The position numbers and the translations under genes were made by a program. Below are positions 1,902-59,082 of a stretch of DNA of 64,000 nt, in pieces (the first letter of the stretch is position 1; each line of letters begins with the position of its first letter). Below the pieces are notes generated by a model, which did not search any database, was not told the DNA's origin, and saw only the letters and a list, made by a program, of their open reading frames with translations. This stretch comes from Alphaproteobacteria bacterium (GTDB taxonomy: Bacteria; Pseudomonadota; Alphaproteobacteria; Rickettsiales; 21-14-0-20-44-7), in NCBI GenBank assembly GCA_043757405.1, contig JAYVPI010000001.1:211437-275436 (forward strand), read 5' to 3'.

Positions 1902-1997
1902 CAGTCTTCGGACGTCAGACTTCAGTATATGAAGTACGTATAAGCAACATATTTCGTGAATTTTTCTGGCGTCTAGTGCCTGATGTCTGAAGTCTTC
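1902..1997. repeat. Imperfect hairpin element (GTCTTCGGAC/TCAGAC family), ORF-less copy; possible clpX terminator
   Basis: TCAGACTTCAG (left) and CTGATGTCTGA (right) are inverted repeats. AGTCTTC is a direct repeat at both ends. The same words recur at 28546-28594 and 47264-47655. Confidence 0.5.
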
Positions 1998-22395: not shown

Positions 22396-22455
22396 TCGTT
22401 TATCGTTGATCGTTGATCGTAAATTGTATAACGGTAAACGATCAACGATAAACGA
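22396..22455. repeat. TCGTTGATCG-type palindromic element (copy 1)
   Basis: TCGTTTATCGTTGATCGTT and AACGATCAACGATAAACGA are perfect 19-bp arms around AAATTGTATA. The element is related to 46953-47024. Confidence 0.7.
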
Positions 22456-22459
22456 GCTC

Positions 22460-23071
22460 ATGCAAATCATAAGATCAAACGAGCTGGTAGATTATCCTTC
22501 GGCGCTTTCCTTCATGGAAAACCGGGTGGACGCGATTATTGAGGGCACGGCGGAAAACACGCTTTGGCTGCTGGAACATCCGCCACTATACACTTCAGGT
22601 ACCTCAGCCAAAATCTCGGATTTATTGCAGCCGGAATTTCCAGTTTACAAGGCCGGGCGTGGCGGGGAATATACTTATCACGGGCCAGGGCAGCGCGTGG
22701 TTTATGTTATGCGGCGGCTGGAGAAACATGACTTGCGGGCCTATGTGCGGGATTTGGAACAGTGGATAATCAATACGCTGGCGCATTTTGGGATCATGGG
22801 TGAGCGGCGTGAGGGGCGGATTGGAATTTGGGTGGCGGCGAATGGCAGCGAAGCAAAAATCGCAGCACTGGGAATCCGCGTGCGGAAATGGGTGGCTTAT
22901 CATGGGATCGCGATCAACGTGAAACCGGATTTGCGCCATTTTGGCGGAATTGTTCCCTGTGGGATTTCAGAATTTGGGGTGACATCGTTTGAGAAACTGG
23001 GAGTGAAAGTTTCGCTGAATGAAGTGGATGAAGTTTTGATTGAGGAATTCATAAAATTATTTAAAAACTAA
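22460..23071 (+). CDS. lipB: Octanoyltransferase LipB
   Basis: Contains [11 protein letters not shown] and [17 protein letters not shown]. The start is set at MQIIRSNE; the upstream part of the track ORF runs through the palindrome. Confidence 0.9.
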
Positions 23072-23072
23072 C

Positions 23073-23119
23073 GTCATCCTGAGCATAGCGAAGGATCTTT
23101 CGCTTGCGCTCAAGATGAC
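23073..23119. repeat. 48-bp-type palindromic element (GTCATYCTGAGCGCAAGCGAAGGATC... family), intergenic copy
   Basis: GTCATCCTGAGCATAGCGAAGGATCTTTCGCTTGCGCTCAAGATGAC begins 2 nt after the lipB stop. Confidence 0.8.
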
Positions 23120-23133
23120 GTATAGATGGAATT

Positions 23134-23848: not shown

Positions 23849-24119
23849 GTCATTGTGGGCTTAGCCAGCGTTGTTGCATGGCTCGGAAAGTTATTGATAT
23901 TTGGTCACCAAAAACAGACGCCGTCATCCTCGCCCGCTTGGGCGGGGATCCAGGGTCGAACACTCCGTAGGTGTCTGTAGCCCTGGATCCCCGAACCTTC
24001 GGTTCGAGGATGACAGTCTTTATTCGTGCTATGGAATCTTAACCATGCAACAACGCCGCTTAAAGCCGTAATCAATCTCCATGCTTGAGTTGAGATTGCG
24101 GCTCGTAGGCCGCAATGAC
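23849..24119. repeat. Composite nested palindromic element, inverted copy of 20925-21145 (inner element 23923-24014)
   Basis: Aligns base for base, with few differences, to the reverse complement of 20925-21145. It carries an extra hairpin, ATTGCGGCTCGTAGGCCGCAAT. Confidence 0.8.
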
Positions 24120-28490: not shown

Positions 28491-28545
28491 GAAGCCAGAT
28501 TAGCTTTCTCGCCTCAGTTGTGCAACTTAAATAGACTTTGGTCAT

Positions 28546-28594
28546 CAGTCTTCGGACTTCAATAATTATTTAAAAACTGACGTCTGATGTCTGG
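28546..28594. repeat. GTCTTCGGAC/TCAGAC-family element, short ORF-less copy
   Basis: The sequence is CAGTCTTCGGACTTCA...CTGACGTCTGATGTCTGG, between the mutL start and the rne stop. Confidence 0.4.
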
Positions 28595-28601
28595 CGACTA
28601 A

Positions 28602-31130
28602 CTACTCGATCATTTTCCGCCACCAGCCTTTGCGATTATCAGAAGGCTTCGCTGAGCCGCCTTCTTCACCGGCATGGGCGACTTCTTTGACCGGTTTTTC
28701 ACGGTAGCCTTGCGGGCTTTCCTCGCCGGTGCTTACCTGGGTTTGCCTGGCTGGGCGTTGCGGGCGTGCGCTTTTCTTTTTCTCCGGCGCAAAGCTCATG
28801 CGAACTGGTTTGCCTGGCTCGAAATGTGTGACGGCGGGGACATCTGCGATGACTTTACTGCTACCGCGTCTTGGTGATGCTGCCTCAACTTCGATTTTTT
28901 CACCCGGGAGTTCGTGCGCGTGGTCATGCTGCTGTTGCGGCTGGCGTTCGCCACGATCTCGGCTGCGATTGCGATTTCTGCTGCGGTTGCGGTTGCGGCG
29001 GTTGCCTCCGCGGCGTTCGCGGTTTTCGTTGAAGCCAACTTCTTCCACGTTTTGCGGACGGGTTTCGCCACCTTCGTTTTCCATGGTCTGGATTTCGTTT
29101 TCAATAAATTTATCATCAGAAACTTGTCCGCTGGACTTGCGCCCGCCGCGATCGCGGTCACGGCCTCGGTCACGCCCACCACGGCTGCGCTTGCCTTTTT
29201 CACCGCGCGATTGCGGCAAGCGGGAAGTATCCCGGTCATCGGATGAAACGGAGCGTGATTTACCGCCTGCGGAATCTTCCAATTGGATACGGAAGGCGGC
29301 TGGGCTCATTTCGGCGACGTCGAGGACTAGTTCAAAACTATATTTGGATTCCAGTTCCGCGATATGTTTCCGTTTATTGTTCAGGAAATATAGACCGAGG
29401 GAAGCCGCGGTTGTGACTATTACGCGGCCAATTTGTACTCCCTGCTCTTGCGCGACTGCCAATTCGTTTTCAATTGAACGGGCGAGTTGTATCATTGCGG
29501 AATCGTTGGAGCGGATGATGCCAGCACCTTTGCAGGTTGGGCATTCGACCATGTTGATTTCGGTGAGTGATGGGCGCAGGCGCTGGCGCGACATTTCCAT
29601 CAAACCAAATGGGGAAATTCTGCCAACTTGGATTTTGGCACGATCGGAGCGCAGCGCGTCTTTCAAATTGCGCTCGACATTGCGGCGATGGCGTGAATCC
29701 ATCATATCGATAAAGTCGATGACGATAAGTCCGGCCAAATCGCGCAGGCGGAGTTGCCTTGCAATTTCATGCGCGGCTTCGATATTAGTGCGCGTGGCAG
29801 TATCTTCGACATTACGCTCCCCAGTGGCGCGTCCGGAGTTGACGTCGATGGCGATCAAAGCTTCGGTAGTGTTGATGACGATATAACCGCCGTTTGGCAA
29901 AGTGACCATCGGATCATTCATCGAGGCAAGATGGCGTTCGATGTTATATTTGTTGAAGATCGGAACCGGCTCTTCGTATTGAACAATTTTTTTGACATGC
30001 GTGGGCATGATCAGCTTCATAAAATCGCGGGCAGTCTCGAAGGCTTTTTGGCCGGCGACTAATACTTCCTCGACATCGCTATTATAAAAATCGCGCAAGC
30101 CGCGTTTGATCATGTTGCCTTCTTCATGCACCAGTGCGGGTGCGGACGAAACAAGTGTATCTTCGCGGATTTTATTCCAGAGTTTGATGAGATAAGTATA
30201 ATCACGCGTAATATCTGCTTTAGTGCGGCCCATACCGTTGGTGCGGACGATCAGGCTCATTCCATCTTTTAACTCTAAACCTTCGATTGTTTCTTTGAGT
30301 TTCCGGCGTTCTTTGACGTCGTTGATTTTGCGCGATACGCCACCACCGCGATTTGTGTTTGGCATAAGCACGCAATAGCGTCCCGGCAATGAAATATAGC
30401 TGGTAACGGAAGCGCCTTTATTGCCGCGCTCTTCTTTGATTACTTGAATCAGGACAATTTGGTTTTTCTTGATTACTTCTTGGATTTTGTAACGGCGGAT
30501 ATTGGCGCGGCGTGGGCGCTCGTACACTTCGTCATTGCCTAAATCCTCGATACCTTCCTGGCTGCCGGATTGTAATTGCTGCTCTTCACCCTCGTGGTGA
30601 TGCTCGGAATTTTCCGCTTCTTCGGCGGAAGTTAGCGGAAGGATTTGCTCGTTTATTGAAAGTTCCTCTTCCTGCGGCAGAACTAAATCTTCCGGAACTA
30701 TATGCGCTTCGTCATCATGTTCAATTTCGCTGATTTCTTCGGATACTGCGACTTCTTCGATGCCACTATCGTTTCTTGCCTCGCGGCCACTGCGTGACTC
30801 ACGCTCGATTTCGGCTTCAACCTGGCGGTTTTCAGCTTCACGCTCTTCGGCTTGGGCGCGTAATAAATCTTGCTTATCAGCAACTGGAATCTGGTAATAA
30901 TCCGGGTGAATCTCTGAAAATGGCAAAAAGCCCTGGCGGCCGGAACCATATTCGACAAATGCGGCCTGAAGCGAAGGCTCAACCCTCGTTACTTTTGCCA
31001 GATATATATTGCCTTTATTTTGCTTCTTAAAACTGGATTCTATATCAAATTCGATTAAAGCATCATCATCCGCGATTGCCAGACGAGTTTCTTCTTCGTG
31101 GAGGCCATCCACCAGCATACGTAAAGTCAT
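28602..31130 (-). CDS. rne: Ribonuclease E (Rne/Rng family)
   Basis: The S1 domain (GNIYLAKVTRVEPSLQAAFVEYG) and catalytic core are present. The C-terminal half is Arg-rich, with an acidic insert. Confidence 0.9.
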   Translation of the reverse strand: MTLRMLVDGLHEEETRLAIADDDALIEFDIESSFKKQNKGNIYLAKVTRVEPSLQAAFVEYGSGRQGFLPFSEIHPDYYQIPVADKQDLLRAQAEEREAENRQVEAEIERESRSGREARNDSGIEEVAVSEEISEIEHDDEAHIVPEDLVLPQEEELSINEQILPLTSAEEAENSEHHHEGEEQQLQSGSQEGIEDLGNDEVYERPRRANIRRYKIQEVIKKNQIVLIQVIKEERGNKGASVTSYISLPGRYCVLMPNTNRGGGVSRKINDVKERRKLKETIEGLELKDGMSLIVRTNGMGRTKADITRDYTYLIKLWNKIREDTLVSSAPALVHEEGNMIKRGLRDFYNSDVEEVLVAGQKAFETARDFMKLIMPTHVKKIVQYEEPVPIFNKYNIERHLASMNDPMVTLPNGGYIVINTTEALIAIDVNSGRATGERNVEDTATRTNIEAAHEIARQLRLRDLAGLIVIDFIDMMDSRHRRNVERNLKDALRSDRAKIQVGRISPFGLMEMSRQRLRPSLTEINMVECPTCKGAGIIRSNDSAMIQLARSIENELAVAQEQGVQIGRVIVTTAASLGLYFLNNKRKHIAELESKYSFELVLDVAEMSPAAFRIQLEDSAGGKSRSVSSDDRDTSRLPQSRGEKGKRSRGGRDRGRDRDRGGRKSSGQVSDDKFIENEIQTMENEGGETRPQNVEEVGFNENRERRGGNRRNRNRSRNRNRSRDRGERQPQQQHDHAHELPGEKIEVEAASPRRGSSKVIADVPAVTHFEPGKPVRMSFAPEKKKSARPQRPARQTQVSTGEESPQGYREKPVKEVAHAGEEGGSAKPSDNRKGWWRKMIE

Positions 31131-32706: not shown

Positions 32707-34683
32707 ATGATAGAATTTAAAAAATTGCGGGATCGACTTTTAGGCCCGCCGCGTGATCCTTTCAGCAAAGACACAAGACATAAGATAAGCCTTGCGATTT
32801 TCCTTGCCTGGGTCGGACTTGGCGCGGATGGTCTTTCGTCATCATGCTATGGCCCGCAGGAAGCATTTATCGCGCTGGGTGAGCATTCAAGCCTCGCCTT
32901 TTATCTGGCAGTCGCAACTGTAATTACCGTTTTCATCATTTCATTTGCCTATATGCAAGTGATCGAACTTTTCCCCAATGGCGGCGGCGGATATCAAGTG
33001 GCGACCAAATTACTTGGGCCATATGCGGGGCTACTTTCCGGCTCGGCATTAATTGTTGATTATGTCCTCACCATCTCAATTTCCATCGCCAGCGGTATCG
33101 ATGCATTGTTCAGCCTTTTTCCCGAAGTCCCCCATGTTTATAAAATTGTGCTATCGGTCGGGATAATTTTGGGCATGGTTTATCTGAACCTGCGCGGCAT
33201 TAAAGAATCGATCAAAATCCTTATGCCGATTTTCCTCGGCTTCGTGGTTACGCATGTATTCTTAATTTTATGGGGAATTTTCGCGCATCGCACGGCAGTG
33301 CCGGAGATGATTCCGAATGCGATCCACGAAACCACAACTCTCGGTGCGACGATGGGGTGGATATTTGTGGTTACATTATTGATGAAGGCGATTTCTCTCG
33401 GCGGCGGAACCTACACCGGTTTGGAAGCTGTATCTAATAATGTCGGTACAATTGAGGAGCCGCGGGTTCGTAATAGCAAGCTGACGATGCTATTAGTCGC
33501 CTGCTCATTGGCCTTTATGGCGGCGGGTATAATTACACTTTATTTAATTTGGAATGTAAAATACGTCCCCGGAGAAACGCTTAACGCAACCGTGTTCGGC
33601 GCCATCATGCAAAACTGGAATATCGGCGGTTTCGAACTCAAAACCATCCTCCTCCCGATAGTATTGTTCCTCGAAACCGGACTTTTATTCGTTGCCGCCA
33701 ATACCGGATTTATCACCGGCCCAATCGTATTGGCGAAAATGGCGACGGACAAATGGATGCCGGATTCCTTCTCTGCACTTTCCAGCCGCCTGGTTACCAA
33801 AAACGGCGTTATGCTGATGGGAGCCGCGGCAATCGGGGTGATTTTGGCGACTAATGGCCGCGTTTCGACCCTCGTCGTATTATATTCCATCAACGTATTC
33901 ATCACCTTCTCCCTCTCCTTCCTCGGACTGATGAAACACTGGCTTGGACGCCACCGCAAGAAAATCAGCATCGGTAAATGGTTCGTGAAGTTCACCTTGG
34001 CCCTACTCGGTTTTATCATGGCCACCGGCATCCTCATCATCACTATAGTCGAAAAATTCGGCACTGGCGGCTGGCTGACAATTTTGATTACTAGTTTCGT
34101 GGTTTATATCGGGTTGTCCATCCGCAAAAGTTATCGTCAACTTTCCAACCGCCTCAATAAATCGGAATGCAAGGTTGAGATCGGTGAGAAAAAAGATCCG
34201 CGCCATACTCCGCATATCCACCACGAAAAACCGACAGCAGTATTTATTCTTGATTCAAATGTCGGCAGCACGACTTACGCCGCGGAATGGGTGCACAAAA
34301 CATTCCCCGGAATTTATAAAAACTTCGTTTTCGTCGGTGTCGGCGAAGTAGATTCGGATAATTTTACCGAAGATGAAGTTTGGGAAAAGCAAAAGCGCGA
34401 TATCAAGCAGAAGCTGCGCTACTTCGTGAACCATTGGCACAATCTTGATGTTGCCTCGACTTCATATATTTCCTACGGAACGGATATCGTAGAAAAAGTC
34501 AGCGAACTCGCCGGTAAAATCGCCCATGATTTCCCGAATTCAGTTTTCTTCGCCACAAAAATGGTGATCAAGGATGAGAACTTCTTTACGCAGATGCTGT
34601 ACAACGAAACCAGCTATATCATCCAACGCCGCCTGCATAATACCGGACATACGATGATTATTATTCCGATGAATTTGCAGTAA
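32707..34683 (+). CDS. APC-superfamily permease with C-terminal soluble domain
   Basis: About 12 predicted TM segments over the first ~470 aa, then a ~180-aa hydrophilic tail. Confidence 0.6.
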   Translation: MIEFKKLRDRLLGPPRDPFSKDTRHKISLAIFLAWVGLGADGLSSSCYGPQEAFIALGEHSSLAFYLAVATVITVFIISFAYMQVIELFPNGGGGYQVATKLLGPYAGLLSGSALIVDYVLTISISIASGIDALFSLFPEVPHVYKIVLSVGIILGMVYLNLRGIKESIKILMPIFLGFVVTHVFLILWGIFAHRTAVPEMIPNAIHETTTLGATMGWIFVVTLLMKAISLGGGTYTGLEAVSNNVGTIEEPRVRNSKLTMLLVACSLAFMAAGIITLYLIWNVKYVPGETLNATVFGAIMQNWNIGGFELKTILLPIVLFLETGLLFVAANTGFITGPIVLAKMATDKWMPDSFSALSSRLVTKNGVMLMGAAAIGVILATNGRVSTLVVLYSINVFITFSLSFLGLMKHWLGRHRKKISIGKWFVKFTLALLGFIMATGILIITIVEKFGTGGWLTILITSFVVYIGLSIRKSYRQLSNRLNKSECKVEIGEKKDPRHTPHIHHEKPTAVFILDSNVGSTTYAAEWVHKTFPGIYKNFVFVGVGEVDSDNFTEDEVWEKQKRDIKQKLRYFVNHWHNLDVASTSYISYGTDIVEKVSELAGKIAHDFPNSVFFATKMVIKDENFFTQMLYNETSYIIQRRLHNTGHTMIIIPMNLQ

Positions 34684-34699
34684 TATCCCTATGCTACAT

Positions 34700-34763
34700 G
34701 TCATCCTGCGACTTGATCGCAGGATCTCTTAGAGAAGACCCTATGGTCAAGCCATAGGATGAC
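34700..34763. repeat. GTCATCC...GGATGAC palindromic element, intergenic
   Basis: GTCATCCTGCGACTTGATCGCAGGATC...CCTATGGTCAAGCCATAGGATGAC. The left module is identical to the one in dnaE (42660). Confidence 0.85.
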
Positions 34764-34769
34764 GTATAT

Positions 34770-40110: not shown

Positions 40111-40125
40111 GGCCACATGATATAC

Positions 40126-40173
40126 GTCATCTTGAGCGCAAGCGAAAGATCTTTCGCTCGCGCTCAAGATGAC
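40126..40173. repeat. 48-bp palindromic element at the era/dnaE junction
   Basis: GTCATCTTGAGCGCAAGCGAAAGA|TCTTTCGCTCGCGCTCAAGATGAC has one arm mismatch. It contains the dnaE stop codon (40164-40166). Confidence 0.85.
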
Positions 40174-43100
40174 GATGGAAGGCAAATGCCCTCGATGAAC
40201 ATTATCTGCTCTTTTAAATTATCATTCACCGCATAATATCCCGGCAGTTCCAGCACCACTTCGCTAACGCCCGTTTGCGCTTTTAATATTACGCGGTTTT
40301 TGAACAACATGCCGCTTTCATATATATTCGCAGCTAATAAATTTCTCAGTTTCGCCACCGCTTCCAGGTTATCTGCAACAAAATTCAAGTCCTGGACTTT
40401 TATAAAACGCAGGAAATTTGCCTTAATTGCCGCTTGCAATTCTTCTATCCTCTCTGCCAACAAACGCACACCACCTTCATCTTTCTTCGCCTCGGCCGTA
40501 ATCAATATCGGCGTATTACTCGCCAACATTTCCGCCGCGCGGGTGATTAGGTCATCTTCGTAGAGAACAATTTCAAACACCCCCATCCCATCCGAAACTT
40601 TCGCAAACGCAAACCGCCCACGCTTGCCGGAACGAATATTCAAGGTTGCCAGCACACCAGCTAAACGAACTTTGGTCGAAGCGCTCTTCAGGCGTTCTTC
40701 GATTTGTATTGATGGCAACACGCCCATTTCATCGAGGATATGCTGATAATCATTCAATGGATGGTCTGATAAATAAAACCCAAATGCCTCATATTCCGCC
40801 TTCAGACGCTCATTGGAATCCCAATCGCTGGCCTGTACTAACGAGGGTTTTGGCGCTTCGCCAATCGTTCCTTCGCCAAATAAGCTGATTTGCGAAGAGT
40901 CAATTTCTTCCTGGCAAATATTGTTATACCGGCTGAGCATCTCCGCCGATTCCAGGATCTGCCGGCGGTTGCAAGCCATGCCGTCAAACGCCCCTGCCTT
41001 CGCCAAACCTTCCAAATGCTTCTTATTAATCACCTTAACATCGCAGCGTTTGCAAAAATCAAACACATCGGCGAACTTCCCGTTCTCCTTCCTCTGCGCC
41101 GCCATTGCTTTCGCCGCTTCGATACCAACGCCTTTTAATGCACCTAGCGCATAACGGATTGAGCCGTTTTCAGGTTGGAAATAAGCCTCTGAGGAGTTGA
41201 TATCAGGAGACAAAACTTTGATACCGCGTTTGCTGGCTTCGTGTTTATAAAAGCTGAGTTTGTCGGTGTCGGCAATATCGAGGTTCATACAGGCGGTCAA
41301 AAACTCCACCGGGTAATGGCAGCTCAAATATGCTGTCTGGTAGGCAATCACCGAATAAGCCACCGCGTGGGATTTGTTGAAACCGTAACCGGCGAATTTG
41401 GCGATCAAATCAAAAATATCCGCCGCCAGTTTTTTATTGATCCCCTTCTCCGCCGCACCTTCGGCAAACATCAGGCGTTGTTCATCCATCTCCGCCTTAA
41501 TCTTCTTGCCCATCGCCCGCCGCAGCAAATCCGCTTTGCCAAGCGAATATCCGGCCAATATTTGCGCGGATTGCATAACCTGTTCTTGATAAACCAAAAT
41601 TCCATATGTCTCATTCAACAAATCCGACAATGAAATATGCGGATATTGCACCTCTTCCTTGCCGTGTTTCCGCGCATTATAACTCGGAATATTTTCCATC
41701 GGGCCGGGGCGGCAAAGCGAAGTTAGTGCCACGATATCCTCAAATTTATCAGGGCGCATTTTGCGAATTGCGTCTTTCACCAAAGTTGTATCCAACTGGA
41801 ATACACCCGCCGTTTCACCTTTGGAAAGCATATGGAAAATCTTCTCATCATCCAGCGGTAGGTTGTGGATATCAACTTTATTCCCCCCAGCCTCAACAAA
41901 CTGCCGCGCCTTATCCACCAGCGTCAATGTACGCAAACCGAGGAAATCGAACTTCACCAACCCGGCCGTTTCCGCATCTTTCATCGAATATTGCGAAACC
42001 GGCATTTCTGAGCGCGGGTCTTTATATAACGGCACCAACTCCACCAATGGCCGGTCAGCAATCAATATTCCCGCCGCATGTGTAGAAGCATGGCGATTCA
42101 ATCCTTCGAGTTTCAGCGCCACATTCAACAATCGTCCGATATTCTCATCATCACGTTGCAACCGCCGCAGTTCAGGATCCATATCTATCGCTTTGGAAAG
42201 CGTCACCGGGTCAATTGGATTGAACGGAATCATTTTAGAAATCCTATCAACTTCCATGTAGGGAATTTGCATCACCCGCCCGACATCGCGCAGCACCGCC
42301 CGCGCTTGTAGTTTTCCGAAAGTGATAATCTGGCAGACACGGTCGTGGCCATATTTATTACGCACATAATCGATCACCTCATCGCGCCGCTCCTGGCAGA
42401 AATCGATATCAAAATCCGGCATTGATACACGTTCAGGATTCAAGAACCGTTCAAACAGCAAGCCAAACCGCAACGGGTCAACATCGGTGATTTGTAGCGC
42501 CCAGGCTACTAAGGAACCTGCACCCGAACCCCGTCCCGGCCCCACCGGAATTCCCTGGCCCTTCGCCCATTTGATGAAGTCGGATACGATTAAGAAATAG
42601 CCCGGAAATTTCATCTTGATAATGACATCAAGCTCGAATTCCAGCCTAGTCCAATATTCGTCATCCTGCGACTTGATCGCAGGATCTTGTGAGTGCATCT
42701 CAGGAGGTCCTGCGGTCAAGCCGCAGGATGACGTTTTAGTATTTAAGCGCTCCTGCAAACCCTCACGCGCCTGCACCCGTAACTCATCTTCCTGCGTCCT
42801 GCCAGCCTCAGTTGGATAATCCGGCAACATCGGCTGACGTCCTTCTGCTTTAACCGAGCAACGTTTCGCAAGCTGCACCGTATTGGCAATCGCCTCCGGA
42901 ATATCCGCAAAAATCGCTATCATTTCCTCAGCTGATTTAAAATAGAATTGGTCGTTATATTTCTTGCGGTTTTCATCAACCAAATATTTGCCCTCGGCGA
43001 TACATATCAGCGCGTCATGGGCCTCGGACATATCCTGGGTTGAATAGAAGCAATTATTAGTGGCGATCAGTGGGAGATTATATTTATAGGCTATATCTAT

Positions 43101-45736: not shown

Positions 45737-46949
45737 TTATTACCTTATTTAAAGCCGCCTCAACCGAAACTTCCTGCTTCTCACTAGATTTGCGATTCTT
45801 CAACTCAACCATTCCATTGGCCGCGCTTCTTGGCCCCACAGCAATTTGCCACGGTAGCCCGATCAAATCCATCGTTGCAAATTTCGCACCCGCTGAACCA
45901 TCGCGGTCATCGTATAAGCAGCTTGCGACTTTGCCATAGATTTCACTGCAGATTTTATCGCAGGCAGCATCACCAGGTTTGATGTTGATTAGCCCGAGTT
46001 TATATGGCGCGACCGGTTCCGGCCAGATGATGCCATTTTCGTCGTGGCTGGCTTCGATAATCGCCCCCACCAGTCGCGAAACGCCGATGCCGTAACTGCC
46101 CATTTGCGGGATAATTTCCTTACCGTCCGGCCCTTGGACTTTGACTTTCATGGCACGCGAATATTTATCGCCGAAATAGAATATGTGGCCAACTTCAATC
46201 CCCCGCGCTTCCTTGAAACCTTGTGGCGCGGTTTTGGGATCGTGCATTTCATCGGCCATGGCATATGAAAAATCATCGGTGTAATAAAGCGCCGACTCTC
46301 CGGTCTGCGCGACGATATGGAATTCGTGGCTCAAATCTCCGCCGATTGGCCCTGTATTGGCGCGAACAGGCACGGCTTTCAATCCCATGCGGGAGAAGGC
46401 TTTTAAATATGCGCCGTGATATTTCCAATATGTTTCCTGCGCCGCTTTTTCGTCGATATCAAAGCTATAAGCATCCTTCATCAAAAATTCGCGGCCGCGC
46501 ATGACGCCGAACCGTGGGCGGACTTCGTCGCGGAATTTCCATTGGATGTTATAAAGCATTTTTGGCAGGTCTTTATATGACTTGCAGGATTGGCGGAAAA
46601 TATCGGTGACAACTTCCTCCGCTGTCGGGCCAAAGAGCAGATCGCGGTCAGAGCGGTCTTTTATACGCAGCATTTCCTTGCCATAAGCTTCATATCGCCC
46701 AGATTCCTGCCATAATTCAGCCGGTTGCATAGTCGGCATCAATAGTTCCAGCGAGCCGATCGCGTCCATTTCCTCCCGAACGATTTGTTCGATATTTTTG
46801 AGGACTTTCAAGCCCAAAGGCAGCCAATTATAGATCCCCGCCCCCACTTGGCGCACCATTCCGGCACGCAGCATCAGGCGATGTGAGGCAATTTGCGCCT
46901 CAGCCGGATTTTCTTTGATTATCGGAAGGAGATATTGGCTTAGTTTCAT
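45726..46949 (-). CDS. proS: Proline--tRNA ligase (short form without editing domain)
   Basis: N-terminus [34 protein letters not shown]. Class II motifs are present. Confidence 0.9.
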
Positions 46950-46952
46950 AAG

Positions 46953-47024
46953 TCGTTCGTTGTTAATCGTTGATCGTTCATCGCTTGTAATTCGATAAAC
47001 GATTAACGATGAACGATCAACGAA
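46953..47024. repeat. TCGTTGATCG-type palindromic element (copy 2)
   Basis: TCGTTGATCGTTCATCG...CGATGAACGATCAACGA with a TTGTAA centre, between the proS and rpmG starts. Confidence 0.65.
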
Positions 47025-47089
47025 AAAGCTTGACTTTGCTGTGGGCGATGGCTAAAAACCCTGACAAATCAAAGAATCGGATAAGAAAA

Positions 47090-47257
47090 ATGGCTAAAAA
47101 AGACGCAATGTTAATCAAGCTGGTCAGCACCGCTGGCACAGGCTTTTATTATGTAAAAAAACGCAATCCGAAGCGTTATCCTAACAAACTGGCTTTCACT
47201 AAATATGACCCAGTAGTTCGTAAGCATGTTGAGTTTAAGGAAGAAAAGCTGAAATAG
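47090..47257 (+). CDS. rpmG: 50S ribosomal protein L33
   Basis: The 55-aa product is [29 protein letters not shown]...[18 protein letters not shown]. Confidence 0.9.
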
Positions 47258-47263
47258 GCTTCA

Positions 47264-47655
47264 GTCTTTCAGACATCGGACTTCAGTGAAAAAGGGCCAC
47301 AGGGAATTAAAAGTTTGGCAAAAATCTGTGGAGTTGGTTGATAATGTATACAACCTCATAGAGAAATTTCCTAAACATGAAATTTATTCTTTATCTACCC
47401 AATTAAAAAGATCCGCGGTCTCCGTTCCCTCAAACATAGCAGAGGGCTCAGCTAGAAAATCTGACAAAGAATTCATACGTTTTTTGAATATTGCATACGG
47501 CTCATTGGTGGAAGCGGATACGCAAATTTACATAGCCGAAAAAAGAAAATATATCTCCTCTGAAGAAGCAATTTCTATTATCAATGATCTTAACGAAGTA
47601 GGCAGAATGATAAATGGCCTAAGAAACTACTTACTGAAGTCCGATGTCTGAAGAC
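47264..47655. mobile_element. IVS-like hairpin cassette: 22/23-nt inverted repeats enclosing a four-helix-bundle ORF
   Basis: The left arm is GTCTTTCAGACATCGGACTTCAG (47264-47286). The right arm is CTGAAGTCCGATGTCTGAAGAC (47634-47655). They are complementary apart from one extra T. Confidence 0.5.
47286..47651 (+). CDS. Four-helix-bundle protein ('23S rRNA intervening sequence protein' / Avd-like family)
   Basis: Family hallmarks LKVWQKS...FPKHEIYSLSTQLKRSAVSVPSNIAEGSAR...FLNIAYGSLVE are present. The GTG start lies at the last base of the left stem and the stop lies inside the right stem. Confidence 0.8.
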   Translation: MKKGHRELKVWQKSVELVDNVYNLIEKFPKHEIYSLSTQLKRSAVSVPSNIAEGSARKSDKEFIRFLNIAYGSLVEADTQIYIAEKRKYISSEEAISIINDLNEVGRMINGLRNYLLKSDV

Positions 47656-47661
47656 CGCAGT

Positions 47662-48546
47662 CTATTTTTTTGCAAAATAATAATGTTCCCCGCGTTCCGA
47701 TTTAAGGATTTTGAGCCTGCGCTCGGTTTCAATGTTTTGCTGTAACTCGTGATATAGCTTAGTTTCCTGTAACGTGAAGCCAGCCCTTTCGACTATCTTT
47801 TTAATCTCGGAAACCGGTGCGGCGAATTTGTATTTTTCTTTTTTCTTGGCCAATACCATATCCGCAGTTTTTGTTCGCGCATTGCCTTCCATCTCGGACA
47901 TCGAGCCGAAAACTATATAACTTCCCTTAGCGCTTAACGAGGAAATATCGGAGAAAAGTTTTTCCACATCTTTCCTTTCCAAATATGGCAAAACACCCTC
48001 AATCACAAAAAAGCTTTTTTGCTTTTTATCAAATTTAGTTGGCCGCAACGCTTCTTTTAGGTTCTTTTTAGAAAGGTCGGCAGCAACAAAATTCATATTA
48101 GAAGTTGTAATTCCCGGCATCCTGGCCAAAGCATCAAGCTTAATTCTTTGTGTCGCTTGCTGATCCAGTTCAAAAAATTCCATTTGCGGATGTAAGTGTG
48201 AATATTCCAGGCAAAGTGTATCAAATCCAGCACCGATCATTGTTACTTGCGTGACTTCCCCAGCCACAGCTTGCAATTGCTTACGGATATAATTTTTGCG
48301 GGCAGCATAATGTACCGGCGAGCCTTTTATGCCGAAATTATCGATGAGCCAGATAGCGGCGCCGTTCCCAATCAAGTTATGCAAAAGCTTTATGCTCAAA
48401 TCGTTTTTTGCACATTCATTGGCCATTAAACGGCTTATTTCAACCTGCTGTTTAGTCACAAGATCAAAATATTTTTTACTCGCAGCGAGTGCTGGCAGAA
48501 CTTTGGGGATCAGGAAAGCGGTAAAACTCGGCTTCTCCTTTGCCAT
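47662..48546 (-). CDS. Class I SAM-dependent methyltransferase (leucine carboxyl/O-methyltransferase-like family)
   Basis: Contains VTMIGAGFDT and FFVIEGVLPYL. Confidence 0.65.
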   Translation of the reverse strand: MAKEKPSFTAFLIPKVLPALAASKKYFDLVTKQQVEISRLMANECAKNDLSIKLLHNLIGNGAAIWLIDNFGIKGSPVHYAARKNYIRKQLQAVAGEVTQVTMIGAGFDTLCLEYSHLHPQMEFFELDQQATQRIKLDALARMPGITTSNMNFVAADLSKKNLKEALRPTKFDKKQKSFFVIEGVLPYLERKDVEKLFSDISSLSAKGSYIVFGSMSEMEGNARTKTADMVLAKKKEKYKFAAPVSEIKKIVERAGFTLQETKLYHELQQNIETERRLKILKSERGEHYYFAKK

Positions 48547-48548
48547 TT

Positions 48549-49598
48549 CTAGACCGCAGCCAATGCCGGTTTGGCTTTCAGGTTATAATCTTTAACCAAG
48601 GCCTCCGCAATCTGCACAGCATTTAACGCCGCGCCTTTACGCAGATTATCGCCAACCACCCATAAATTGATTCCGTTTTTGATAGTAAAGTCTCTACGGA
48701 TACGGGAAACGAAAACATCGTCTTCGCCAACCACCTCAACTGGGGTTGCGTAACCACCATCTTCCTGCTTATCAAAAACTCTCACGCCCGGGGCATCTTC
48801 CAAAATTTCACGCACCTGCTCAGGAGTGATTGGGTTTTCAAATTCGATATTGATCGATTCCGAGTGTCCAACAAAAACCGGCACGCGCACACAAGTGGCG
48901 CTCACAGCGATATTCGCACCCAATATTTTCTTTGTCTCATTCACCATTTTCAACTCTTCCTTGGTATAACCATCATCCGCGAATGAATCGATATGCGGGA
49001 TAACATTGAAGGAAATGCGTTTAGTAAATTTTTGCGGCGCGACTTTATCGTTCATATAAACGGCTTTCGTTTGCGAAAACAACTCATCCATCGCCTCTTT
49101 ACCGGCGCCGGAAACTGATTGGTAAGTTGAAACTACGATACGTTTGATTTTGGCAGCATCATGCAACGGTTTCAAAGCCGTGACCATTTGGATAGTCGAG
49201 CAGTTTGGGTTGGCGATGATATATTTTTTTGTATATTCGGAAATCGCCGCTGCATTAACTTCCGGCACCACCAATGGAACTTCCGGATCCATGCGGAATT
49301 GTGAAGTGTTATCAATAACAATACATTTTGCCGCCGCCGCTTTTGGCGCGTAAATCGCAGAAACTTTGCTGCCTGGTGAAAACAAGGCGATATCAGTGCC
49401 GTGGAAGTCATGTTTTTCCAAATTTTGGACTTTAACAATTTTGTGATCGCCGAAGCTAACTTCAAGGCCGGCAGAACGAGCGGATGCAAGCGCAACTAAC
49501 TCACGAACCGGGAATTTGCGCTCCGATAAAATTTTTAATATTTCACGGCCAACATTGCCCGTGGCGCCGACGACGGCGACTTTGTAACCTGAGGACAT
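48549..49598 (-). CDS. asd: Aspartate-semialdehyde dehydrogenase
   Basis: VAVVGATGNVGRE and the active-site NCST context are present. Length is 349 aa. Confidence 0.95.
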   Translation of the reverse strand: MSSGYKVAVVGATGNVGREILKILSERKFPVRELVALASARSAGLEVSFGDHKIVKVQNLEKHDFHGTDIALFSPGSKVSAIYAPKAAAAKCIVIDNTSQFRMDPEVPLVVPEVNAAAISEYTKKYIIANPNCSTIQMVTALKPLHDAAKIKRIVVSTYQSVSGAGKEAMDELFSQTKAVYMNDKVAPQKFTKRISFNVIPHIDSFADDGYTKEELKMVNETKKILGANIAVSATCVRVPVFVGHSESINIEFENPITPEQVREILEDAPGVRVFDKQEDGGYATPVEVVGEDDVFVSRIRRDFTIKNGINLWVVGDNLRKGAALNAVQIAEALVKDYNLKAKPALAAV

Positions 49599-49654: not shown

Positions 49655-50377
49655 CTATTTTTTATCGCAAACCGCCTCAAAAAATATCGCCCGCGTGGTA
49701 TTGGCGAGGTTTTTCTTCTGATACTTAGTTTCAATATGGTCAATAGGTTGTGTTTGCCAATCTGCCCTGGAACCTGCCAACCAACGAAATTTATCGTGTT
49801 CCAGCAATTCTCTGGCGATCCATTTAGCATAATCTTCGTGATCCGTGGCAATTCTGAGCCTGGCATCCCGCTTCATAATTCGTGCAAGCAAGTCTAAAGT
49901 TTGCTTCGATATTATCCGGCGTTTATTCTGCCGTTTCTTTGGCCACGGATCGGGGAACAGTATAAATACACGATCAATAACTCCCTCCCACACGTCATCC
50001 TGCGGCTCGACCGCAGGATCTCCTATGGTCAAGCCATATGGTGACGTAATTAATTGACGAAAATCTCCGGCATAGACTCGGATATTCTTAAGCTCATTCT
50101 CTTCAATCCCACGCAATAATTTTACAGTTCCGTTTACAAACGGCTCGCAGCCAATAAAGCCAATTTTGGGATTTGCCAGCGCCTGATGCAATAAATGACC
50201 ACCATCACCAAAGCCGATCTCCAGCCAGATTTCTTTGAAATCAAACTTAGGAAAGCCGTCAACTTTCACTTTGGGCAAAACTTCCGCCAACAGCTTTTTG
50301 GAATTATCACGCAGCTTGCGCGACTTGGTACGACCAAAGCTTTGCAGGTATTTAGGCGACTGCTTTGCGTAATTCAT
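49655..50377 (-). CDS. trmB: tRNA (guanine46-N7)-methyltransferase TrmB
   Basis: Contains [14 protein letters not shown]. The start is set at ATG 50377 and overlaps the metK 3' end by 26 nt. The track's 50443 start is less likely. Confidence 0.85.
49994..50045. repeat. GTCATCC...GGTGAC element inserted in frame in trmB
   Basis: GTCATCCTGCGGCTCGACCGCAGGATCTCCTATGGTCAAGCCATATGGTGAC encodes [17 protein letters not shown]. Confidence 0.8.
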
Positions 50378-52194: not shown

Positions 52195-53760
52195 TTAAAC
52201 TTTTCTTCTAAAAATTAATAAAAACTCCACACTGATTATGATTAATCCAAATATTATCCAATCACCGTATAATGAATATATAGTTACCGAATTATTTAAT
52301 TCAAGATCGGCGGATAAAAATCCATGCTGATTATAAGCCAATGATTTTACAATCCGCCCATTCTTATCAATAATCGCCGAAACTCCTGTATTAGCCGCCC
52401 GCAACATTGGCACCCCTTGCTCAATTGAACGCATTTGCGACATCGCCAGATGTTGATACGGCCCCGTCGAATTTCCAAACCACCCATCATTAGTAACATT
52501 AACCAGCAAATCCGGCTTGACTGCCGAATGGGAAAATTCCGGAAATGTGACTTCATAACAAATCAACGGCAAAAACCCCGGCCCGTTTTTATATTTCATC
52601 ACCTCACGCTTGCCCCCTTGCGAAAAATCCAGCGCTCCAGGCGTAATTTTTTCCAGCGGCAAATAATTCCGGAACGGCACAAACTCCCCAAACGGCACAA
52701 GGTGAATTTTGTCATAAGACTGATAAATCCCATCTTTGCTGATAGCATAAAGCGTGTTCCAAACCTGGTAATTACTTTTGCTTTCCCCGCTAGAGCGCAA
52801 CCCGCCAGTAACCAACACCCCATTATCCGGCGCCACACGCCTCAACAAATCCGTCACTGGCTGCTGCCGGTTCAAATAATAAGGCGCTCCCGATTCCGGC
52901 CACAAAACTATATCCGCGTTTTTATAATCCAGCGTCTGCATGAAATCTATATTCTCAATAAACTGCTTCTTCGCCGCCAACGGCTCCCACTTCAACGATT
53001 GCTCAACATTGGGTTGGAAGATTATGACTTTGGCAGTTTTATCTAAATCACCCTCACCTTTGCCAAAACATAACAGGCCATACAGAATTATAATCCCTAC
53101 AAGAGCAACAACCCCAACAAGTGATTTCTTATTTTTATAATAAAGCGGCAATAGCGAAATAATTATCACTACATAGCTCAACAAATAAACTCCGCCCGCT
53201 GAAGCAAGCTGTGAAAAAATAGTTGAAACTAGTGCCGTATATCCAATCAAATTCCATGGAAACCCCGTGAACAACCATGTGCGGATTAATTCAAAAACCA
53301 CCCATAATATAGAGAAAAGGATAATATCATTCCAATTCCCGCATTTGTCATCCTCGGGCTTGACCCGAGGGTCCAGCGATGAGTATGCCGCATGGCTGGA
53401 TCCCAGCCTTCGCTGGGATGACCTAAATGCGAGAGCAAACAACCCAATATAAATCGCCAGACCAAATGGAATCCCGCATACCGCAAACGGAATCAGCCAC
53501 GCAAATTTTTCTGCATCAACAAGTAGTGAGTTAGCAATCCAATATAAGCCAAACACAAAATACCCAAAGCCGAATGCCCAGCCGATTTTGAATGCCTGTA
53601 TCTTATTTTCCGCCGCAGCAAGAATTTTAAAAAATATTGGGAATGAGATAAATAAAACCGGAAAGATATAAAACGGCGCCAATGCCAAATCCGCCAATCC
53701 GCCAGCGGCAATTAGCGTTAAATACTTCAGCTTTCCTTGCAAAAAAAATTTTATCCCCAT
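52195..53760 (-). CDS. lnt: Apolipoprotein N-acyltransferase
   Basis: An N-terminal polytopic region and a CN-hydrolase domain with the LICYEVTFPE catalytic Cys context are present. Confidence 0.9.
   Translation of the reverse strand: MGIKFFLQGKLKYLTLIAAGGLADLALAPFYIFPVLFISFPIFFKILAAAENKIQAFKIGWAFGFGYFVFGLYWIANSLLVDAEKFAWLIPFAVCGIPFGLAIYIGLFALAFRSSQRRLGSSHAAYSSLDPRVKPEDDKCGNWNDIILFSILWVVFELIRTWLFTGFPWNLIGYTALVSTIFSQLASAGGVYLLSYVVIIISLLPLYYKNKKSLVGVVALVGIIILYGLLCFGKGEGDLDKTAKVIIFQPNVEQSLKWEPLAAKKQFIENIDFMQTLDYKNADIVLWPESGAPYYLNRQQPVTDLLRRVAPDNGVLVTGGLRSSGESKSNYQVWNTLYAISKDGIYQSYDKIHLVPFGEFVPFRNYLPLEKITPGALDFSQGGKREVMKYKNGPGFLPLICYEVTFPEFSHSAVKPDLLVNVTNDGWFGNSTGPYQHLAMSQMRSIEQGVPMLRAANTGVSAIIDKNGRIVKSLAYNQHGFLSADLELNNSVTIYSLYGDWIIFGLIIISVEFLLIFRRKV
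53347..53422. repeat. GTCATCC...GGGATGAC element inserted in frame in lnt
   Basis: GTCATCCTCGGGCTTGACCCGAGG...GATCCCAGCCTTCGCTGGGATGAC encodes GSSHAAYSSLDPRVKPEDD. Confidence 0.8.
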
Positions 53761-53763
53761 AAC

Positions 53764-53834
53764 GTCATCCTGCGGCTTGACCGCAGGAACTCCTCATACA
53801 CGCACCAGACCCTGCAATCAAGTAGCAGGGTGAC
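53764..53834. repeat. GTCATCC...GGGTGAC element at the lnt start / bioF end
   Basis: GTCATCCTGCGGCTTGACCGCAGG...CCCTGCAATCAAGTAGCAGGGTGAC. It contains the bioF stop (53818-53820) and lies 3 nt upstream of the lnt ATG. Confidence 0.8.
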
Positions 53835-54951
53835 ACATATTTAGTGTTTTAAGCCAATCCGCCAATAAATCAATTTCACTTTTCGTATGCGCCGCCGTCA
53901 CCGAAATGCGGAGCCGCGCCGTCCCCTTAGGCACCGTTGGCGGCCGCATCGCCGAGACTAGTATTTTATTATCCTTAAGCAACTTCTCCGCCGCTAGCGC
54001 CTTTTCCTCGCTGCCCAAAATAATAGGAACGATACTTGAAGTTCCGTCATTACGAGCGAAGCGCGGCAATGACGATTTAAGATATTCCGTATTCTTCAAT
54101 ACTTTCAAATATAGCTCATCCCGCCCAGCAATCTCCAGCGCCTTTATCGCCGCACCAACCGCGAATGGCGGCAGCCCAGTTGAATAAATCAATGATCGCG
54201 CCTTAGTCTCCAAATACCGAATCAAAGCCCGAGAACCACAAACATACCCCCCATAACTCCCCAGCGCCTTTGACATTGTCCCGATATAAATGTGAGCTTT
54301 AAGTTTTGATTTTTGATAAATGGAGTGTGCGCCGTCAACTATTAGTGTGCAGTTGTTTTTATCGGCGATTTCCTTCAGCTCATCAACCGGAGCAAAATCC
54401 CCATCCATTGAAAAGATCTCTTCGGTGATGATGAGCCGCCTGCGCTTATCGTCATTCTGAGCGCAAGCGAAGGATCCTTCGCTTGCGCTCAGAATGACGT
54501 CTTTCTCCAAACACTTCTTCAAGTCAGCAACATCATTATGCTTAAACCGCACCAGCTTTGCGCCGGAGAGCTTTATTGCGTCGATTATAGAAGCGTGGAC
54601 TAATTTATCGGCATAAACCACTTCCGGCTCCAGCGCTGTGATAACGCCAAGATTTGCCAGATATCCGCTGCCAAATACCGTGGCGGCCTCATAACCTTTA
54701 TAAGCCGCGATTTTTTCAGCAAATTCCCCAAATAATGGATGATTTCCGCCCGCAATCCTGCTTGCCCCCGCTCCTGCGCCATATTTTTCCGCAGCTTCTA
54801 TTCCGGCAATAATCACTTCCGGATGGCGGCTTAAACCTAAATAATCATTTGATGTAAAATTGATAAATCCTTCCCCCCACTCACCCTTGGGCGTTCGCAG
54901 GAGATTTTTATCCTTCAAATCATTTAGTTTTTGCTGTAATAGACTATCCAT
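53818..54951 (-). CDS. bioF: 8-amino-7-oxononanoate synthase
   Basis: SNDYLGL and the PLP-Lys context [12 protein letters not shown] are present. The start is set at ATG 54951 (MDSLLQQKL...); the track's 55011 start is TTG. Confidence 0.85.
54451..54498. repeat. Perfect 48-bp palindrome inserted in frame in bioF
   Basis: GTCATTCTGAGCGCAAGCGAAGGA|TCCTTCGCTTGCGCTCAGAATGAC has 24+24 arms with no mismatch. It encodes [16 protein letters not shown]. Confidence 0.9.
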
Positions 54952-55900
54952 GAACATCCGACACGATTGGAAACAGTCTGAAGTTATAGATTTATTCGCC
55001 CTGCCTTTCAACGACCTAATATTTCAGGCCGCCAGCGTGCACCGCGCCAATCATGATCCAAACGCGGTTCAAATCTCGACATTACTCTCCATAAAAACCG
55101 GCGGCTGCGCGGAAGATTGTAAATATTGCCCGCAATCCGCATCATATGACACCCCCGTAAAAGCCGAAAAACTCACCACAGTTGAACATGTCCGCTCCGA
55201 GGCCACAAAAGCCAAAGCCGCCGGAGCTTCCCGCTTTTGCATGGGCGCCGCCTGGCGTTCGCCTAAGGATCGGGATTTGGATAATGTTATTGAGATGGTG
55301 AAGGTGGTGAAGGATCTGGGGTTGGAGTCGTGCTGCACATTGGGCATGTTGACGAAACCACAAGCCGAGAAATTGAAGGATGCGGGGCTGGATTATTACA
55401 ACCACAACATCGATACTTCCCCGGAATATTACGGAAATATAATCACCACCCGCACCTTCCAAGACCGCCTCGATACACTCGCGCATGTGCGCGAGGCCGG
55501 AATGAAAACCTGCTGCGGCGGCATAGTAGGAATGGGCGAATCAGTGGCCGACCGCGCCGGTATGCTGCTGACATTGGCGAATTTGCCTGAACACCCGGAA
55601 TCCGTCCCGATTAATCTGCTAGTCCCAGTCGAAGGCACCCCATTCGGCAATCGGCAATCGGCAATCGGCAATCTCGACTTCGTCCGCATGATCGCCGTGG
55701 CGCGGATATTAATGCCAAAATCCGCAATACGCCTGTCAGCAGGCCGCGAAGAAATGTCAGACGAAATGCAGGCGTTATGTTTCCTAGCGGGTGCAAATTC
55801 GATTTTTTATGGCGAAAAATTATTAACCACTCCGAATCCGGAAGCCCTTGAAGATAAGAAGCTTTTTGACCGACTGGGTCTTAAAGCTATGGCAGTTTAA
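54950..55900 (+). CDS. bioB: Biotin synthase
   Basis: The radical-SAM motif [11 protein letters not shown] is present. The start is the first ATG, at 54950 ([16 protein letters not shown]). Confidence 0.95.
55645..55673 (+). repeat. Heptanucleotide tandem repeat (CGGCAAT)x4 +1 inside bioB
   Basis: The run is perfect: cggcaat cggcaat cggcaat cggcaat c. It encodes GNRQSAIGN. Confidence 0.95.

Positions 55901-55934: not shown

Positions 55935-59082
<3,148 letters not shown>

Follow-up and report, generated by a model that had tools for sequence, protein, structure and literature searches.

We analyzed a 64,000-nucleotide (nt) stretch of alphaproteobacterial DNA (GenBank assembly GCA_043757405.1, contig JAYVPI010000001.1, positions 211,437 to 275,436 of the forward strand), referred to here as the window. 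Between rpmG and a convergent methyltransferase gene, the window contains a 121-amino-acid (aa) open reading frame (ORF) enclosed by two complementary sequences, the arms of a long stem. We refer to the arms and the enclosed ORF together as the cassette. The features of the locus, in window coordinates, are as follows.

47090..47257, + strand: rpmG, ribosomal protein L33, 55 aa (TIGR01023, PF00471); its TAG stop is separated from the left arm by 6 nt
47264..47287, + strand: left (5') arm, GTCTT-T-CAGACA TCGGACT TCAGT, tandem heptamers of the type TCRGACN
47286..47651, + strand: four-helix-bundle ORF, 121 aa, "S23p" family (PF05635, TIGR02436)
47633..47655, + strand: right (3') arm, ACTGAAGTCCGATGTCTGAAGAC; encodes the ORF end ..LLKSDV and supplies the TGA stop
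47656..47671, + strand: short spacer and a 7-T run (47665-47671), overlapping the final codons of the convergent methyltransferase gene
47662..48546, - strand: LCM-type S-adenosylmethionine-dependent methyltransferase (PF04072, TIGR00027), convergent, in an operon with asd (48549-49598)

A repeat search detected the arms at 47268-47287 and 47633-47652 as two 20-nt sequences with 100% complementarity, separated by 345 nt. If one bulged T is allowed, the stem lengthens to 47264-47287 and 47633-47655, or 22 to 23 bp. The sole sizeable ORF between the arms (47286-47651, + strand) begins with a GTG codon that overlaps the final base pairs of the left arm and ends with a TGA codon (47649-47651) within the right arm. 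No Shine-Dalgarno sequence is found upstream of the GTG, and the start codon is within the stem. When the 451-nt transcript was folded, the long stem closed the 345-nt ORF loop with a minimum free energy (MFE) of -119.4 kcal/mol (z = -5.2), and 0 of 100 shuffled sequences folded as well. AAAUAG:CUAUUU pairs in the MFE fold lengthen the stem up to the 7-T run, which may end the rpmG-ORF transcript. The methyltransferase gene ends 7 nt past the right arm, and no canonical terminator was called between rpmG and this gene, including the gap between rpmG and the left arm. The 64-kb window contains no match to ribosomal RNA (rRNA), and no Rfam family matches the window hairpins. The rpmG ORF as called mechanically (47009-47257) would encode 82 aa, but the true gene starts at 47090 and encodes 55 aa.

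These results agree with the original prediction, an earlier note made from the sequence alone, which had described arms that are complementary apart from one bulged T, a GTG at the end of the left arm, a TGA inside the right arm, and a position between rpmG and a convergent methyltransferase gene. Gene calls and profile matches concur on that position, and the folded transcript has the stem that closes the ORF loop. The heptamer nature of the arms was absent from that description: the left arm is made of the tandem heptamers TCAGACA TCGGACT TCAGT.

The ORF encodes a conserved four-helix-bundle protein

The ORF matched PF05635 with an E value of 1.8e-41 (141.1 bits, against a cutoff of 33.8) and TIGR02436 with 132.7 bits (cutoff, 24), so that its assignment to this family is unambiguous. 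The closest sequence in the Protein Data Bank is 2GSC/Xcc0516 (E = 1e-26, 46% identity). An AlphaFold2 model of the ORF product has four helices (pLDDT, 95.5), and Foldseek superposed it on 2GSC with a TM-score of 0.91 to 0.97 and a root mean square deviation of 0.8 to 1.6 Å; 2RLD also superposes. The motif R-x3-S-x3-N-x2-E (G..R...S...N..E), which has been described for the family (PMC3936711), is intact as R42, S46, N50, and E53, and S46, N50, E53, and G54 are invariant in an alignment of 40 sequences. The GTG start aligns with the ATG of two orthologues (L002 and L003; L numbers denote loci in other genomes), with which the ORF has the N terminus MKKxHRELKVWQKS in common. By homology, the protein is predicted to form a homopentameric nucleic-acid-binding ring, as the crystal forms of 2GSC and 2RLD have five chains each. 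The original prediction had placed the ORF in the four-helix-bundle family of 23S rRNA intervening sequences (IVSs), and the profile scores and the likeness to 2GSC bear this out.

The family is large. A single search returned 970 homologues at an E value of 1e-5 or lower, and among the matches listed, 597 of the 600 genome stretches examined encode a relative. A phage origin of the gene was considered and rejected, as no homologue was present among 50,697 phage records. To our knowledge, no function is known for any PF05635/TIGR02436 member, though the family has been crystallized twice.

Most relatives of the ORF are packaged in inverted heptamer arrays

We surveyed relatives of the ORF by a profile scan that covered one genome per species, at least 80 loci, and many phyla. 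Seventy-seven relatives were analyzable, and 135 other ORFs from the same loci served as controls; the counts from this survey refer to the matches listed. An inverted repeat with a score of at least 12 brackets 48 of the 77 relatives (62%) versus 2 of the 135 controls (1.5%). Raising the score threshold to 16 leaves 40% of relatives and 0% of controls. The flanks of the relatives are periodic, with a period of 7 in 32 flanks and of 8 in 4, and the heptamer units vary by locus (GTCAGTA, GGTGGAC, CGTGAAA, AGCCTTA, and others). When the units from 56 loci were rotated, a common core, nnnT(C/T)(A>G)G, emerged with an information content of 4.18 bits; the null distribution had a mean of 3.07 and a maximum of 3.29. 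The window units ACTTCAG and ACATCGG fit this core, nnnTYRG. It follows from the core that the 3' arm carries CTGA and that, once there are three units, a TGA is present in all three frames. The stop codon indeed lies inside the 3' arm in the window ORF, in its L002 orthologue, and in an unrelated high-GC cassette, L148 (..KLRSDI-TGA).

None of the 80 loci matched large-subunit rRNA, a count that may be biased because metagenome-assembled genomes (MAGs) often lack rRNA operons. Location outside the ribosomal operon is clearly the norm for the family. Since none of the listed loci is in rRNA and 62% of the relatives have the same packaging, the window locus is a typical family member. The original prediction had implied that the site outside rRNA is exceptional; this part of it is not supported. 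Its overall interpretation is supported in part, the cassette being IVS-like and accessory.

Homologues on plasmids are mostly cyanobacterial (46 records, 20 of them from Nostoc), and (TAGGGAG)n/(TCCCTAC)n and similar arrays flank those from cyanobacteria. In Nostoc edaphicum, a cassette framed by (TAGGGAG)n/(TCCCTAC)n is wedged antisense between nrdB and nrdA (L207, 1486-1854). On a plasmid of Anabaena sp. 90, about 40 GGTGACA/GGGAACA units precede the gene, which sits between cas6 and cas4 (L208, 1492-1860). The presence of 23S_rRNA_IVP genes inside cas operons had been noticed previously (PMC3936711), and the reported CRISPR associations of the family may be insertions into operons with no functional link.

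We compared unit similarity with protein similarity and found a very weak correlation (Spearman r = -0.09), which was confined to protein pairs of at least 60% identity. Simple cognate recognition is therefore not supported. For two proteins with TCAGACN arms, L135 and L148, the best matches in the set reach only 40 to 48% identity and do not include the window protein. Within a cassette, both arms and all units are alike, which implies a homogenizing process. The constant polarity of the arms, with the TCAG type upstream, was discarded as information on ORF orientation because it is a trivial consequence of hairpin symmetry, identical on both strands; for the same reason, an apparently inverted ORF in L113 is no evidence of inversion.

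Two observations were made on the units themselves. Mixed units of the type GGTGACR/GGGAACA occur both in an alphaproteobacterial MAG spacer (L212, 2913-2945) and on the Anabaena sp. 90 plasmid (L208, 1120-1420), so that similar units recur in distant phyla. Locus L013 contains two cassettes 2 kb apart (447-869 and 2953-3372) with the units AGACCTG and AGGGACG, showing that different unit types coexist in one genome.

The packaging of the family in inverted heptamer arrays appears to be undescribed. We found no description in the literature that links the gene family with heptamer arrays in general, in a search whose coverage did not extend to subscription journals.

Hairpins with the same heptamers but no ORF lie behind stop codons

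Allowing one mismatch, the arm motif TCRGACNTCRGAC occurs six times in the window, compared with an expectation of 0.22, and 0 of 100 shuffled sequences reached six. These six sites coincide with the arms, two each, of the cassette and of two hairpins that contain no ORF.

1902..1997, + strand: ORF-less hairpin, CAGTCTTCGGACGTCAGACTTCAGT ... GCCTGATGTCTGAAGTCTTC, directly after the clpX stop and before the co-directed next gene
28538..28601, + strand: ORF-less hairpin with loop TTATTTAAAAACT, abutting the stop (28602-28604) of an 842-aa minus-strand gene

The former hairpin folds with -29.3 kcal/mol (z = -2.8) and the latter with -21.1 kcal/mol (z = -5.6). All three hairpins of this type in the window, including that of the cassette, start 0 to 6 nt past the stop of the upstream gene (clpX, rpmG, and the 842-aa gene), and CAGTCTTC... 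is a conserved outer end in all three. The window thus contains three diverged TCRGACN copies within 64 kb, one of which has a gene. No target-site duplication was found by inspection at any of the three.

The original prediction had taken the short hairpins to be relatives of the cassette stems and, further, empty derivatives of the cassette. The relationship stands, as all are of the same heptamer family. The claim of derivation is harder to sustain. Four ORF-less loops were compared with three ORFs, giving 12 tests, and the loop TTATTTAAAAACT resembled the 3' end of the L003 ORF at 12 of 13 nt (p = 0.004, uncorrected for the 12 tests). This single match is too weak to claim that the ORF-less hairpins are cassette derived.

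We also searched in the reverse direction, from the repeat to the gene, by scanning metagenome contigs for the TCRGACN array TCRGACNTCRGACNTCAGT, which gave at least 81 matches in at least 80 loci. Among the matches listed, 24 of 81 have an inverted downstream partner, and approximately 20 of these 24 pairs are short ORF-less hairpins. The inverted pairs in L135 and L148 enclose intact four-helix-bundle genes (loops of 468 to 508 nt), and the pair in L113 encloses a degraded one. A gene plus a dispersed gene-less repeat, as in systems composed of repetitive extragenic palindromes (REPs) and their associated transposases (RAYTs), was therefore found, with 3 of the 24 listed inverted pairs carrying a four-helix-bundle gene or its remnant. 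In L163, a frameshifted copy of the gene follows an array that has no strong partner. These counts show that gene-less hairpins far outnumber gene-bearing ones and that decaying genes occur inside arms. Among the same matches, 32% of arrays start between -14 and +10 nt from a stop codon, counting stop codons that close an ORF of at least 80 codons, versus 6% of random positions.

The cassette is an accessory element of the asd-rpmG spacer

A search of 5.8 billion proteins returned as the two nearest homologues those of L002 (78% aa identity) and L003 (72%), both of which sit at the same spacer as the window ORF; the next homologues are at most 56 to 59% identical. L002 has the order rpmG, cassette, convergent methyltransferase gene. 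L003 has the order asd, hairpin, ORF, hairpin, convergent rpmG, with the methyltransferase gene absent, the ORF flipped relative to its neighbors, and two extra hairpins. Comparison of the window ORF with those of L002 and L003 gave proportions of nonsynonymous differences (pN) of 0.14 to 0.21 and of synonymous differences (pS) that are saturated at 0.77 to 0.83. The ORF protein is 69 to 78% conserved, versus 76 to 77% for Asd and 56% for the adjacent methyltransferase. The protein is thus under purifying selection, with a conservation that equals that of Asd. The stem is maintained as well: comparison of the window with L002 shows three pairs that have changed on both sides and yet remain paired, one that has become a wobble, and one that is broken.

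The window ProS is 64 to 67% identical to those of Rickettsiales and Rhodospirillales MAGs. Five relatives that are closer by ProS (82 to 91%) and by Asd, namely, L084, L209, L210, L211, and L212, have no cassette gene. The spacer in each genome is located as follows.

asd-rpmG spacer, window: 47258-48548
asd-rpmG spacer, L084: 9716-9768
asd-rpmG spacer, L209: 3194-4258
asd-rpmG spacer, L210: 3578-4500
asd-rpmG spacer, L211: 3142-4271
asd-rpmG spacer, L212: 2878-3254
asd-rpmG spacer, L003: 1137-1710

L084 is the sister lineage of the window in both the ProS and the Asd trees; its spacer consists of 53 bp with a canonical bidirectional terminator, and no period-7 array is present in 21 kb of its sequence. 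In L211, the spacer holds just the methyltransferase gene; in L209 and L210, it holds other small ORFs; and in L212, it holds other repeats, including GGTGACG/GGGAACA heptamers. The methyltransferase gene itself is present in L002 and L211 and absent from L003, L084, L209, L210, and L212. In this alphaproteobacterial clade, the convergent asd/rpmG spacer is a permissive hot spot where accessory DNA is found, and the cassette is accessory and dispensable. Its pattern of presence, inversion, and absence requires several gains or losses and one inversion. The comparison of the region downstream of rpmG in relatives, suggested with the original prediction, therefore found the cassette in L002, inverted in L003, and missing from five genomes. 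The proposed mobility of the cassette rests on this variation at one spacer among genera; no target-site duplications and, within the 64-kb window, no near-identical copies were found.

Other repeats in the window

A second family of heptamer hairpins, with TCGTTGA/TCGTTAA units, is present at 46944-47025 (-31.9 kcal/mol, z = -5.3) and 22391-22460 (-35.7 kcal/mol, z = -7.6). The former lies between proS and rpmG, is crossed by the upstream extension of the 82-aa rpmG ORF, and has no counterpart in the sister lineage L084; the latter adjoins tRNA-Leu(GAG). Neither of these two window copies has a four-helix-bundle gene beside it. A perfect array of four TCGGCAA units (55644-55673) lies in frame within the bioB coding region, where it alters a BioB loop that reads FAANEK-VEPLDF in the relative L084; a heptamer array is thus tolerated within the gene of a conserved enzyme. 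Three sets of REP-like palindromes were also found.

GTCATCCTGCG..CGCAGGATGACG: 34682-34766, 42642-42734, 49976-50047, 53746-53836, 56981-57065
CGTCATTCTGAGCGCAAGCGAAGGATC..: 23071-23120, 40125-40174, 54450-54499
CGGGGATCCAGGG..CCCTGGATCCCCG: 21005-21055, 23943-23993

The source genome is unusually rich in several kinds of intergenic hairpin repeat.

A model for the cassette

We consider it reasonably probable that the window locus is an ordinary example of the heptamer-armed PF05635 cassettes, a class that is widespread but little described and that represents the same kind of unit as the ORF-bearing 23S IVS, and that it is an accessory passenger of the rpmG transcript. Transcription of rpmG would read into the cassette across the 6-nt gap, in which there is no terminator, and rpmG is the likely source of this read-through. 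In the transcript, the arms would pair as a double-stranded RNA helix of about 22 bp that closes the 345-nt ORF loop. This helix would bury the GTG start, which lacks a Shine-Dalgarno sequence, and so the stem probably hides the start codon. The helix would also be long enough for RNase III, and by analogy with IVSs, it is probably a site of RNase III-type processing; a cut there would free the ORF RNA from the rpmG mRNA and uncover the start codon. In the 3' arm, the CTGA units would place TGA in all frames, one of them serving as the stop of the ORF. The product, a basic pentameric ring if it resembles its homologues, would act on nucleic acid, most likely on heptamer-repeat RNA or DNA, including that of its own arms, which are the obvious candidate target of the predicted pentamer. 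Over evolution, the cassette would come and go, or change orientation, at intergenic sites that tolerate it, and hairpins of the same heptamer type but without an ORF would accumulate behind the stop codons of other genes.

A broader possibility, which we put forward tentatively, is that PF05635 cassettes are the gene-bearing form of the abundant tandem heptamer arrays of bacteria (short tandemly repeated repetitive [STRR] sequences, GGGAATC, TAACTGA, and MTYCTGA) and that the role of the protein is to make, maintain, process, or bind such arrays. If so, this would be a gene/repeat partnership like that of RAYTs and REPs, involving an RNA- or DNA-binding pentamer and rapidly retemplated 7-nt units, and it would provide a first mechanistic handle on a gene family without a function and on the puzzle of "prime-number periodicity." Two unexplained features, the PF05635/TIGR02436 family and bacterial tandem heptamer repeats, would thereby be joined. 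The window contributes a clean, intact, and selected example, and its value is as a tidy model case and not as an oddity.

Several points weigh against the reading of the locus as an IVS-type accessory cassette with a protein that acts on its arms. The near absence of coupling between units and protein sequence argues against simple sequence-specific recognition of the arms. The lack of target-site duplications, together with the differences among the three window copies, leaves recent transposition unsupported, and several losses could by themselves account for the patchy distribution. The compensatory changes in the stem could have arisen by gene conversion between the arms, not by selection on RNA pairing. 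The ORF-less loops contain at best one marginal remnant of an ORF, and the hairpins could be primary, with the gene lodging in them. Orientation was considered as evidence and set aside: 92% of cassette genes point the same way as the upstream gene versus a baseline of 82% for control genes, a difference that is not significant (p = 0.07). RNase III cleavage is proposed by analogy, and no rnc gene is present in the 64-kb window. Finally, the scarcity of rRNA operons in MAGs may have contributed to the count of zero rRNA loci.

Alternative explanations for the arms and the gene

The protein might instead be a domesticated, trans-acting host factor that binds TCRGACN hairpins after clpX, after the 842-aa gene, and at other sites and controls the stability or processing of mRNA 3' ends, with its own arms serving for autoregulation and not as part of a selfish element. 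The strong purifying selection and the housekeeping-level conservation at one locus in three genera would fit such a regulator, as would a single gene copy in 64 kb beside two ORF-less hairpins of the same unit, all of them right behind stop codons; heptamer arrays have in fact been proposed to act posttranscriptionally (PMC4679880). A host regulator, however, is not expected to be missing from all five of the nearest relatives in the sample, among them the sister lineage, or to occur elsewhere as degraded copies (L113 and L163) and as copies wedged between unrelated genes (nrdB/nrdA and cas6/cas4), and the unit sequence is almost uncoupled from that of the protein. We therefore regard this account as rather unlikely, and a DNA transposon as more unlikely still. 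The latter would be a nonautonomous element resembling a miniature inverted-repeat transposable element (MITE), in which the arms serve as terminal inverted repeats for a transposase encoded elsewhere, with the gene as a passenger and the short hairpins as the usual miniature form. Although the conserved outer end CAGTCTTC of the inverted termini in three window copies, the many ORF-less copies per ORF-bearing copy among the metagenome matches listed, and the presence or absence among relatives are all MITE-like, none of the three window copies has a target-site duplication and no transposase adjoins the cassette. Arms that differ by cassette while keeping a period of 7 are ill suited to recognition of fixed ends, and an association of gene and arms across many phyla and many units is unexpected of a random passenger.

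That the arms are mere terminators or 3' stabilizers of rpmG and the methyltransferase gene, with a small unrelated gene between them, is suggested by the canonical bidirectional terminator that the sister lineage has at the exact place of the cassette and by the T run after the extended stem. Yet a single arm forms no hairpin; the arms pair only with each other, across 345 nt, and they encode the start and the stop of the ORF. We rejected the plain-terminator explanation, which we consider very improbable, because no terminator-like site was called and because the same packaging surrounds 62% of homologues, among the matches listed, versus 1.5% of other genes. The original prediction would have fallen if the stems had proved to be plain terminators with no related copies in the genome or if the ORF had failed profile searches; the absence of a called terminator and a PF05635 score of 141.1 bits speak against both. 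The least credible explanation, to which we assign almost no weight, is that the ORF is a remnant or orphan Avd of a diversity-generating retroelement (DGR). The protein has its fold in common with Avd (4DWL; TM-score, approximately 0.8) and weakly matches bAvd, but it is 10% identical to Avd, and its scores fall below the thresholds of NF033474 (40.8 bits; cutoff, 80) and PF22296 (37.4 bits; cutoff, 40). Its neighbors are rpmG, the LCM methyltransferase gene, asd, and proS, and the window contains no direct repeat of the template/variable type; all of its direct repeats of 30 nt or more are REP-like palindromes. The housekeeping neighbors and the lack of a template/variable repeat indicate a standard S23p protein, not a DGR part, and we rejected the DGR explanation on these grounds. 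As originally predicted, neither the gene neighborhood nor the repeat search revealed a reverse transcriptase or a template/variable repeat in the window.

Comparison with known systems

The cassette most resembles the ORF-bearing 23S IVS. In Coxiella burnetii, the IVS has a 28-bp terminal stem that is cut within by RNase III and three tandem GACAGAT heptamers just before the S23p start, in a copy number that varies among strains; ORF-bearing 23S IVSs are also found in Leptospira, Xanthomonas, and Brucella (PMC4990558). Both units have a PF05635 ORF inside terminal inverted repeats, with a stem of 20 to 28 bp and a total length of about 400 nt, and both have a poor or absent Shine-Dalgarno sequence. 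Both also have tandem heptamers in the 5' arm before the start, GACAGAT in Coxiella and TCRGACN in the window, so that the analogy to IVSs drawn in the original prediction extends to the heptamers of the arm (PMC4990558). The two differ in location, IVSs being in helix 25 or 45 of 23S rRNA, whereas the window cassette is in the 3' region of the rpmG mRNA. RNase III excision has been demonstrated for IVSs; it is proposed by analogy for the cassette, whose stem of at least 20 bp is compatible with it. Furthermore, the Coxiella ORF is decaying, whereas the window ORF is under purifying selection.

Dispersed heptamer repeats form a second point of comparison. Xanthomonas campestris has about 186 GGGAATC arrays, of which about 70 are in convergent pairs, and a supplementary table of the same study shows array 15 overlapping the start codon of XCC0516, on which the paper does not comment (PMC4692102). 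Geobacter hairpins contain five MTYCTGA heptamers (PMC2700814). In a survey of 7,006 prokaryotic genomes, heptamers were the commonest of the intergenic tandem repeats, and the study saw "no clear clue" to what they do (PMC6344855). Like the cassette arms, the dispersed repeats (STRR, Xanthomonas GGGAATC, Geobacter MTYCTGA, and Beggiatoa TAACTGA) are intergenic and have a period of 7, frequent convergent pairs, a TCAG/CTGA-like core, and positions near start or stop codons (PMC4692102, PMC2700814, PMC4679880, PMC6344855). They differ in having been published as orphan repeats without a gene, whereas the arrays described here frame a four-helix-bundle gene in 62% of homologues among the matches listed.

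With REP/RAYT systems, the cassette has in common one gene set between inverted copies of a repeat, further copies of which are dispersed with no gene. The protein is nevertheless a small helical bundle that lacks the motifs of Y1 (HUH) transposases and whose profile matches are confined to PF05635 and bAvd; the repeats are tandem heptamers whose sequence varies by cassette, and the protein is not known to spread them. Avd (4DWL and 8UBE) has the same four-helix fold and, by homology, the pentameric nucleic-acid-binding ring predicted here. In addition to the low identity, the subthreshold scores, and the lack of a nearby reverse transcriptase or template/variable repeats, Avd differs in that its genes have not been described as enclosed in hairpins. 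The closest protein-level counterpart is the Xcc0516/BT_0352 family (2GSC and 2RLD), which has the same fold, 46% identity in the case of 2GSC, the same polar motif, and no essential difference from the window protein.

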